Source: Candidatus Niyogibacteria bacterium (lineage in GTDB: Bacteria > Patescibacteriota > Minisyncoccia > HO2-45-28). From it: DNA of 64,000 bases. Below, piece by piece: positions 8,096 through 9,232 of this stretch; position 1 is the first letter of the stretch; each line of letters begins with the position of its first letter. A program made the position numbers and the translations under genes. The DNA lies in the NCBI GenBank assembly GCA_016432485.1, contig CP066691.1, positions 388,709 to 452,708 of the forward strand, read 5' to 3'. The notes beneath the pieces were generated by a model. It had not been told where the DNA came from and made no database searches. It was given only the letters and a program-made list of their open reading frames with translations.

Positions 8096-8240
8096 CCGTC
8101 ACCCTCACACCTACTTTGGCATCGTTGCATCGTGTTTTCGTTATTCTTGTCACATATCCACTACAGCCAACGAAACATTCATTCCGCTGACTTACGTTTG
8201 TGATGCAACAAAAACACAATGCCAAAGTAGGTGTGGGGGC
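8096..8240. repeat. ~145-bp structured palindromic element inserted in 23S (copy 1)
   Basis: Terminal inverted ends CCCTCACACCTACTTTGGCAT...ATGCCAAAGTAGGTGTGGGGG. About 90% identical to 9091..9232. Confidence 0.7.
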
Positions 8241-9090
8241 TCCGATTCCTTGTAAGCATATGGTTTCAGGTACTATTTCACCGCCCTCAACGGGCTGCTT
8301 TTCACCTTTCCCTCACGGTACTAGTTCACTATCGGTCTTGAAACGTATTTAGCCTTGGGAGTTAGTTCTCCCGGATTCCCCCGACCCATTCATGCGTCGA
8401 GGTACTCAAGTAATCCTTCGACTTCGCTCAGGATATAACACCCTGAGTTTAATCGAAGGGTAACGATTCAGAGAGCATAAGACCGTTTTTGAATACGGGG
8501 CTATTACCCACTATGGCCCGGCTTTCCAGCCGATTTTCCTAACGAAGTCTTAATTTTATTAACTCTCCTTGGGATTGCTCCCAAACGAACCGTACTTACA
8601 ACCCCTAACTAGTTGACTAGTAAACTAGTTCACTAGTTAAGTTTGGGCTGTTCCCTTTTCGCTCGCCGCTACTAGGGGAATTTGCACATCTCGCTTGCGC
8701 TCGATGTAATGACTAATTCCTAATTTCTAATTCCTAAAATAATTAGAAATTAGACATTAGATAATTAGAAATTGCATATCGAACGTAAGTGAGATATGTG
8801 TTGTTTTCTTTTCCTCCAGGTACTGAAATGTTTTACTTCCCTGGGTGCACTCTCCGATTAAAATCGGAGTAATTTGGTTTTGCCAAATTGGGTTTCCCCA
8901 TTCGGACATCCCCGGTTCAAAGGTTGCTCGCCACCTCCCCGAGGCTTATCGCAGGCACGCCACGTCCTTCATCGTCGTTTCAAACCAAGGCATCCACCAT
9001 ACGCCCTTATGTTCTGTCCCGGTGTTTTGATATTTATCCCGCCATTCTTTGTACCACTTACAAAGAAAACGGGATTTTTAGACTTATTTT

Positions 9091-9232
9091 CCCTCACACC
9101 TACTTTGGCATCGTTATGTCATGTTTTCGTTATTCTTGTCACGTATCCGCGACAGCCAACGAAACATTCATTCCGCCGACTGATACTTGTGATGCAACAA
9201 AAACACAATGCCAAAGTAGGTGTGAGGGTGAC
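9091..9232. repeat. ~145-bp structured palindromic element in the rRNA leader (copy 2)
   Basis: Same element as 8096..8240. Lies between the rRNA promoter and the 23S 5' end. Confidence 0.7.

Follow-up and report, generated by a model that had tools for sequence, protein, structure and literature searches.

A 64,000-nucleotide stretch of contig CP066691.1 from Candidatus Niyogibacteria bacterium (positions 388,709 to 452,708; assembly GCA_016432485.1), hereafter the window, carries two ribosomal RNA (rRNA) genes, that for 23S, which is read from the minus strand and has its 5′ end at 9020, and that for 5S (4786-4891). No 16S gene is present in the window, and the 23S-5S operon is unlinked. 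The operon contains two copies of a palindromic element, one within the 23S gene and one in the leader that precedes it. Relatives of this element are found in other bacteria of the Candidate Phyla Radiation (CPR, or Patescibacteria), and the family occupies at least three 23S helix tips (Escherichia coli positions ~280, 540 to 553, which is helix 25, and ~655), the rRNA leader and intergenic DNA. The two copies in the operon are as follows:

8102-8239, minus strand: element copy inside the 23S gene, identified by repeats, fold and alignment with E. coli; 129 bits with covariance model R1.
9091-9228, minus strand: element copy in the 23S 5′ leader, identified by repeats, fold and promoter; 127 bits with R1.

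Model R1 was built from the element, and its E-values are rough. A repeat search of the window retrieved these as two direct copies of 138 nt apiece, and a base-by-base comparison found 13 differences between them, corresponding to 90.6% identity over 138 nt and in agreement with the roughly 90% given by the first-pass annotation of this DNA. That annotation placed the copies at 8096-8240 and 9091-9232; the placement stands, and the exact ends are corrected here to those listed above. Both copies have inverted termini, as described earlier, which span 24 nt and are 92-96% complementary. The match is not perfect in the internal copy, where CCCCC lies opposite GAGGG and leaves one C·A mismatch. 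The terminal motif CCCYCACACCTAC, with at most one mismatch, has 7 occurrences in the window, where 0.06 would be expected, and 0 of 100 shuffles reach 7. Within the window, the element arms are confined to the four sites listed in this text, namely, the two long copies and two short members described below. Folding of the RNA of the two long copies gave −69.5 and −72.9 kcal/mol, with z scores of −9.5 and −9.9 against shuffles, showing hairpins far more stable than those of the shuffled sequences. The internal complementarity GTGTTTT/AAAACAC that had been pointed out was recovered as helix A-A′ (see below).

The element appears to encode nothing, with reading frames broken in most copies. A protein search with the peptide from the open frame across the element returned no match, and an exact look-up of the antisense open reading frame (ORF) 8888-9271 was likewise negative. 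Rfam has no family for the element and, whether the gathering threshold or E-values up to 1 were applied, matched nothing there. A group I intron is not supported, as no Rfam match to its catalytic core model was obtained at the element.

The position of the internal copy was established by blastn against E. coli rrlH. Window positions 8358-8239 correspond to E. coli 23S positions 420-540, the alignment ends exactly at the element, and the native GUGAC (E. coli 553-557) resumes on the other side. The internal copy therefore takes the place of the helix 25 tip (E. coli positions 540 to 553). It lies 781-918 nt from the 23S 5′ end, close to the distance of about 800-950 nt proposed earlier. The leader copy precedes the 23S 5′ end by 71-208 nt and follows the predicted transcription start by approximately 145-280 nt. 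The following features define the surroundings of the two copies:

9379-9406, minus strand: sigma-70 promoter of the 23S-5S operon, TTGACA-16-TATAAT, 12/12 match to consensus, from sequence.
9274-9290, minus strand: G+C-rich hairpin followed by UUUU, in the leader, from sequence.
9011-9033, minus strand: 5′ strand of helix 1 and of the leader-trailer processing stem, AUAUCAAAACACCGGGACAGAAC, read from sequence.
4941-4962, minus strand: 3′ strand of helix 1 and of the processing stem, GUUCUGUCCCGAUGUUUUGAUA, in the region of the true 23S 3′ end, from sequence.

The promoter at 9406-9379 lies upstream of the second copy, which is therefore in the leader, between the rRNA promoter and the 23S 5′ end at 9020, as the first-pass annotation had it. 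Beside the leader hairpin, GAACUUUGACAA (9255-9244) is a boxA-like sequence that matches the E. coli boxA at 9 of 12 positions. The leader-trailer stem is formed by 9033-9011 paired with 4962-4941 and is separate from the element. The earlier alternative of a processing-stem module thus does not hold in the sense of the classical leader-trailer stem.

Relatives of the element were sought with its 20-nt terminus, scanned as an exact match in GTDB species genomes, one metagenome collection and viral contigs. No exact match was obtained in the GTDB species genomes or in the viral contigs; the species representatives would accordingly not include the source genome and its close relatives, or would lack their rRNA operons. 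The terminus matches 10 metagenome contigs, 8 of which hold true elements, and the family has a length of 132-138 nt, with ends CCCCCACACCTACTTTGGCAT. Two contigs with a single terminus (L012 and L016) were considered as ends of an autonomous element and rejected; the matches lie inside ordinary ORFs, one of the genomes is G+C rich, and they are probably due to chance. In four contigs (L007, L008, L010, and L015), the element ends approximately 15 nt before the 23S 5′ end according to the Rfam placement. L015 has a second copy inside its 23S gene at about E. coli position 655, which is 97% identical to its leader copy, and L009 has a copy inside the 23S gene at about position 280. In L011 and in L013/L014, which represent one sequence from two samples, the element is intergenic. 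The arrangement of a leader copy plus an internal copy is thus found in two divergent organisms, that of the window and L015. All six sequenced rRNA-operon copies are in sense orientation. The 23S gene of L015 is interrupted by an intron, and when its trailer was sought for leader-trailer pairing, the 23S 3′ end was not found in the L015 sequence examined.

The family is present in several CPR lineages with 23S genes of just ~80-83% identity, and the 23S genes of the carriers are 80-88% identical mutually and no closer to each other than to those of other CPR classes. A 25-nt 23S signature beside helix 25 that is common to the window and the related contigs occurs in more than 120 GTDB genomes, nearly all of them metagenome-assembled genomes (MAGs) of Patescibacteria/CPR, and the 23S gene of the window is approximately 78-84% identical to that of any of these GTDB relatives. 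A search with R1 of 120 CPR 23S loci from GTDB genomes found no strong copy, and the distribution is therefore patchy. The only hits in those loci were short hairpins with CCCCCACAC ends, located at helix 25 in an Uhrbacteria MAG (L017), at about E. coli position 1710 in a Falkowbacteria MAG (L134), and beside a tRNA upstream of the 23S gene in L087. Helix 25, the tip of which measures 12 nt in E. coli, holds other, unrelated insertions in L007, L009, and L015. Judged by these comparisons, the element is a patchily distributed insertion and not native 23S sequence. Two findings that would have spoken against the first-pass annotation had been named in it, and neither was obtained. A native sequence conserved in relatives is contradicted by the unrelated insertions at their helix 25 and by the lack of a strong copy in the 120 GTDB loci, and a lack of further family members is contradicted by members in two other 23S sites, four other leaders and intergenic DNA.

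An alignment of 10 copies contains 46 invariant columns, almost all of which are in the two arms. Between lineages, no alignment of the cores is possible, whereas the invariant termini comprise 21-26 nt. In the RNAalifold analysis of the 10 copies, the outer stem (O) measures 22 bp, the 3′ side has a bulge of 8 nt, and the inner stem, of 7 bp, shows compensatory changes. The element is not a simple palindrome, as the modules of the 5′ arm are ordered O-A-B and those of the 3′ arm A′-B′-O′. With this order, helices A-A′ and B-B′ cross and are therefore mutually exclusive. Both are nevertheless present in every lineage, with differing sequences, as follows:

Window: A/A′, GUGUUUU / AAAACAC; B/B′, GUUGCAUC / GAUGCAAC.
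L011: A/A′, GUUCUG / CAGAAC; B/B′, UUUUUA / UAAAAA.
L014: A/A′, AUUCUG / CAGAAU; B/B′, GCUUUU / AAAAGC.

The complementarity of B and B′ was compared with shuffles, with P values of 1e-4 to 0.05 per lineage. In either conformation, a stem of 21-22 bp is bounded by a bulge of 7-9 nt. Only 1 of the 13 differences between the window copies falls in the outer stem (P = 0.048), and the evidence for arm conservation within this genome is therefore weak. The leader copy has four differences in the A′/B′ modules, and B-B′ is broken there. It is the comparison between lineages that argues strongly for conservation of the arms.

Two shorter hairpins that share the end of the element were also reported in the first-pass annotation, and both exist and are recovered by the covariance model of the long element:

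11650-11754, minus strand: short member of 105 nt with CCCCCACACCTA ends and a differing interior (E = 5e-6).
29382-29443, minus strand: short member of 62 nt with a CCCCCACACCTA end (E = 4e-8).

The family is thus represented in the window by two long and two short members. The hairpin at 11650-11754, downstream of tRNA-Val, has the direct repeat TCAA/TCAA on its two sides. The one at 29382-29443 provides the end of the msrB reading frame (ORF 29391-29831), that is, its final codons with the stop codon, and UUUU comes after it; it thus rewrites the msrB C terminus and also looks like the terminator of that gene.

Exact 4-nt direct repeats flank L011 (TTTA), L014 (ATAA), and the window hairpin at 11650 (TCAA), that is, three of the five non-rRNA copies. 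The probability of three or more of five by chance is approximately 4e-6, with a per-site chance of 0.004-0.007. The short members at 3832-3924 of L007 and at 29382 of the window have 4-nt repeats with a 1-nt offset. The earlier proposal of a MITE-like (miniature inverted-repeat transposable element) or IVS-like (intervening sequence) family able to insert into rRNA is supported by the members at several sites; three intergenic or short members have target-site-like 4-nt duplications.

The element is probably a MITE-like palindromic family of approximately 135 nt, non-coding and resident in CPR/Patescibacteria, that serves as an IVS-type insertion. The components of this reading differ in strength. 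It is very likely that an inserted and dispersed palindromic family acts as an IVS-type insertion. That it spreads by transposition is evenly balanced, and its RNA is somewhat more likely to be excised than to be kept as an expansion segment. In the proposed mechanism, a trans-acting transposase would recognize the termini and spread the element at the DNA level, as for a MITE. In small, gene-dense genomes, the surviving copies would be those in harmless spots, such as leader RNA that is discarded and the surface tips of rRNA helices. Copies in the operon would be transcribed within the pre-23S RNA, each folding to a perfect stem of 21-22 bp with a bulge of 7-9 nt. RNase III substrates follow a two-helical-turn rule, and a stem of 21-22 bp, which amounts to two helical turns, would have the size of such a substrate. 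RNase III would then cut the stem as in classical 23S intervening sequences and in Correia elements (PMC4990558, PMC2649163), the leader copy disappearing along with the leader. Cleavage of the internal copy would leave the 23S rRNA in two pieces, a fragment of approximately 0.78 kb (domain I) and a remainder, held together in the ribosome.

Several observations weigh against this reading. Flanking duplications are found in none of the eight rRNA-operon copies (Fisher P = 0.035 versus the non-rRNA copies). Selection acting on rRNA helices may have removed the repeats; alternatively, these copies may have reached the operon differently, for instance through recombination or gene conversion that replaced a helix tip. 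Exact-match scans of genomes, metagenomes and viruses, which a diverged parent could escape, turned up no transposase and no longer element sharing these ends, and no RNase III gene signature is present in the window or the related loci. The family has just four members in 64 kb, two of which share little beyond their 12-nt ends, and a terminator-like hairpin (9290-9274) stands between the promoter and the leader copy. Finally, a generic RNase III substrate would need neither an invariant 22-bp sequence nor conserved A/B arms.

The proposed excision has to be weighed against retention, in which the helix 25 copy stays in the mature 23S rRNA as a surface-exposed expansion segment and the leader copy is degraded with the leader. 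This outcome is conceivable but doubtful. All CPR 23S genes compared hold insertions, of many different sequences, in helix 25 and the other sites in question, which are variable surface helices, and no sequence feature of the element demands cleavage. Several bacterial lineages retain expansions at such helices. An expansion segment would, however, not be expected to recur as an identical sequence in the leader and in three helices. The perfect duplex of 21-22 bp is a classical RNase III substrate, and helix 25 IVSs are excised in all tested cases (PMC4990558).

In another rival reading, the element is a processing module selected by the host, in which the invariant duplex, the bulge and the second helix would form the recognition site for an rRNA maturation factor. 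This factor (RNase III, Mini-III, or a CPR-specific protein) would trim the leader and cut or mark the 23S rRNA. Gene conversion or recombination, rather than transposition, would have multiplied the module inside the operon, and its intergenic copies would be terminators or processing sites. In line with this, the outer stem is invariant across lineages with unalignable cores, and the O-A-B ... A′-B′-O′ architecture is conserved with covariation. Pairing is better kept in the rRNA-operon copies, with a compensated C-G to U-A change in the leader copy of the window, while the intergenic L011 and L014 have one or two mismatches. The position ~15 nt before the 23S 5′ end recurs in four contigs, the rRNA copies lack flanking duplications, and the leaders and internal insertions of L007, L009, and L071 share other, unrelated hairpin families. 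We nevertheless consider a host module unlikely, given that no strong copy is found in 120 other CPR 23S operons and that the element occupies different sites in different organisms, unlike an essential function, and given the 4-nt duplications at its intergenic copies. Moreover, sharing between leader and internal insertions exceeds the control in just 1-2 of ~80 unbiased GTDB loci, and its candidacy as a general CPR trait was rejected on the same count.

The other hairpin families are as follows. In L007, hairpins rich in ACAAAACA/TTGTGCTTTG are located at 5467-5646 (leader), 6545-6701 (helix 25), and 6903-7088 (near E. coli position 655). L009 has a family of AATTTTC repeats that is shared between the leader and internal insertions (2027-2142, 1691-1800, 1004-1103, and 90-212), and the hairpins shared in the same way in L071 (7816-7940 and 7410-7538) have CCCTCACTAACTTTTTGC ends.

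A further possibility, which we regard as improbable, is that the element is a portable cassette read by a sequence-specific factor, with the duplex and the mutually exclusive inner helices working as a recognition or switching device and with the leader and internal copies delimiting a piece of the pre-23S RNA that matures separately. Were this the case, the piece would be domain I in this organism, and rRNA would be fragmented modularly, by copy and paste. A specific factor reading the duplex and the two-state arms would amount to a new rRNA maturation signal.

Least probable is a long-range bracket. Here the leader copy would pair through its 5′ arm with the 3′ arm of the internal copy, the other two arms would also pair, and the resulting stem would enclose 23S domain I, which would then mature like a separate rRNA. 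The best inverted repeat of the region does lie between the copies (8098-8125 with 9205-9232, 28 nt, 96% complementary). It includes four flanking bases (GUCA/UGAC), as likewise in L015 with four additional flanking pairs (UUUA/UGAA), and the summed duplex energies between versus within copies are −98.8 versus −97.7 kcal/mol in the window and −107.1 versus −100.4 kcal/mol in L015. These energy differences are small, however, and the flank complementarity concerns two cases only, with UGAC and UGAA belonging to the native rRNA. Self-folding is open to each copy once it is transcribed, ~900 nt before its partner exists, which favors local hairpins, and there are leader-only (L007 and L008, as far as sequenced), internal-only (L009), and single intergenic copies.

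Other features of the window deserve mention. A 701-nt insertion in the 23S gene (5243-5943, minus strand) is located at E. coli position 2593/2594. Its ORF 5352-5798 encodes a single-domain LAGLIDADG endonuclease (Pfam E = 2.7e-8), and it gives only a weak match to group I introns (19.9 bits, E = 0.013). The 23S 3′ coordinate assigned by Rfam (5900) is wrong, as the gene runs on past this insertion to ~4953, with the sarcin-ricin loop and the 23S 3′ end at approximately 5240-4953. At least four further hairpin insertions, unrelated in sequence to the element, are present in the 23S gene at 8690-8800, 8560-8640, 8395-8470, and 7905-7990, which correspond to approximately E. coli positions 136-151, 287, 363, and 655. 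Several of these, such as CTAATTTCTAATTCC and AGCTTTTAGCTTTTAGC, are palindromes of low complexity. Published descriptions of CPR bacteria (PMC11270868) agree with the unlinked state of the 23S-5S operon, with its numerous rRNA insertions and with a LAGLIDADG insertion at position 2593.

Next to the 11650 hairpin, a promoter with the sequence TTGACT-17-TATAAT (11649-11621, minus strand) begins at the hairpin edge. Its −35 box overlaps the flanking TCAA/TTGA repeat, which recalls the promoters at the ends of Correia elements. Between this hairpin and tRNA-Val, ~200 nt of G+C-rich, structured-looking sequence (11757-11960, minus strand) contain a tRNA-like T-arm and acceptor end (GGTTCGATCCCAGCATCGCGCA) and the internal repeat GAATCGAACCTTTGAGGTG / GAATCCTTTGAGGTGAG. 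A tRNA remnant at this place was rejected, since ARAGORN and Rfam call none. A perfect 34-nt palindrome (29863-29896) lies between msrA and msrB. The six Logan contigs with this msrA (L001-L006) stop ~30 nt past the gene, at the palindrome, in what looks like an assembly break. Extension of the source genome by way of msrA led only to Logan contigs no longer than 4.4 kb. An RNase P RNA match (51789-52250, minus strand) measures 462 nt for a model of 367 positions, which implies extra sequence, and a perfect 36-nt palindrome (52328-52363) is located just upstream of it. ORF 3999-4523 (plus strand), downstream of the 5S gene and on the opposite strand, contains a PaaX central/Cas2-like domain (Pfam E = 3e-18), and no CRISPR array was noticed.

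The window also contains an ORF with a Y1/IS200-like transposase domain (21630-22382, minus strand; Pfam E = 5.4e-10). This ORF is flanked not by the element but by perfect palindromes based on GAACCGAGTTCGG, which are found at 21647-21691, 22362-22447, 22940-22983, and 28246-28286. From sequence, the ORF and its palindromes look like a separate system in this CPR genome, similar to repetitive extragenic palindromes (REP) with their RAYT transposase. Identity of the element with REP/REPIN and RAYT was rejected because the Y1 ORF is flanked by GAACCGAGTTCGG and neither 26-nt end of the element is complementary to itself.

Helix 25 IVSs and their excision by RNase III are textbook knowledge. IVSs are located in helices 9, 25, and 45, their distribution is sporadic, RNase III cuts their long terminal stems, and a transposon origin has long been hypothesized for them (PMC4990558). 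The element resembles the IVSs of Salmonella, Yersinia, Campylobacter, Leptospira, and Coxiella in being extra sequence at the tip of a variable helix, helix 25 being a classical site. Its complementary terminal inverted repeats form a long stem of more than 20 bp, and its presence is sporadic among relatives, with horizontal spread suspected. Unlike IVSs, it also occupies the rRNA leader, three different helices depending on the organism, and intergenic DNA, where it has flanking duplications. It also lacks an ORF, its termini have been kept in hosts that diverged deeply, and its excision is here only presumed.

The 23S genes of CPR bacteria contain many short, uncharacterized insertions at IVS sites that are not introns (PMC11270868). 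The element is similar to the 23IS2 and 23IS4 insertions among these in host group, kind of site, and size (<200 bp), and IVSs of the RNase III type have been suggested for them (PMC11270868). In contrast to what that survey describes (Tsurumaki et al. 2024), the element is a defined sequence family that links leader, internal, and intergenic copies; the survey makes no mention of palindromes, inverted repeats, hairpins, or leader copies (PMC11270868).

Small size, lack of coding capacity, and terminal inverted repeats are features that the element has in common with MITEs. Among these, the Correia elements are transcribed as hairpins that RNase III cuts at the inverted repeats, and their ends can give rise to promoters (PMC2649163, PMC10969869). 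The Correia/CREE (NEMIS) elements of Neisseria are similar to the element in size (~100-155 bp) and in terminal inverted repeats (~26 bp), and the −35 box abutting the 11650 copy has its parallel in the Correia end promoters. A short target duplication may also be common to both, exact 4-nt repeats being found at three of the five non-rRNA copies of the element but at none of its eight rRNA-operon copies. There is, however, no sequence similarity; Correia elements duplicate TA whereas the repeats at the element measure 4 nt, and there are no reports of Correia elements inside rRNA genes. In a recent review of prokaryotic MITEs, rRNA goes unmentioned.

REP/REPIN sequences are, like the element, non-autonomous palindromes of ~100 nt with conserved inverted ends and a variable spacer, and a Y1-like ORF is present in the window. 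The ends of the element are, however, not small hairpins, and flanking duplications are not expected for Y1 transposition. With the leader-trailer stems of rRNA precursors, the element shares a long precursor duplex near the mature 23S 5′ end that is a likely RNase III target, but it pairs with itself and not with a trailer.

What is new with respect to these systems is that leader hairpins, IVS-type insertions in several helices, and intergenic copies with duplications all belong to one defined family. The leader-plus-internal arrangement in two divergent organisms and the conserved two-state design of the arms are also new. The family provides the first sequence-level handle on the uncharacterized short rRNA insertions of CPR bacteria, in which dispersed repeats in rRNA operons can break assemblies and mislead rRNA annotation. 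The origin of IVSs has been open since 1990, with a transposon origin proposed without direct support. The element family links the two and makes the transposon-origin hypothesis testable in CPR genomes.

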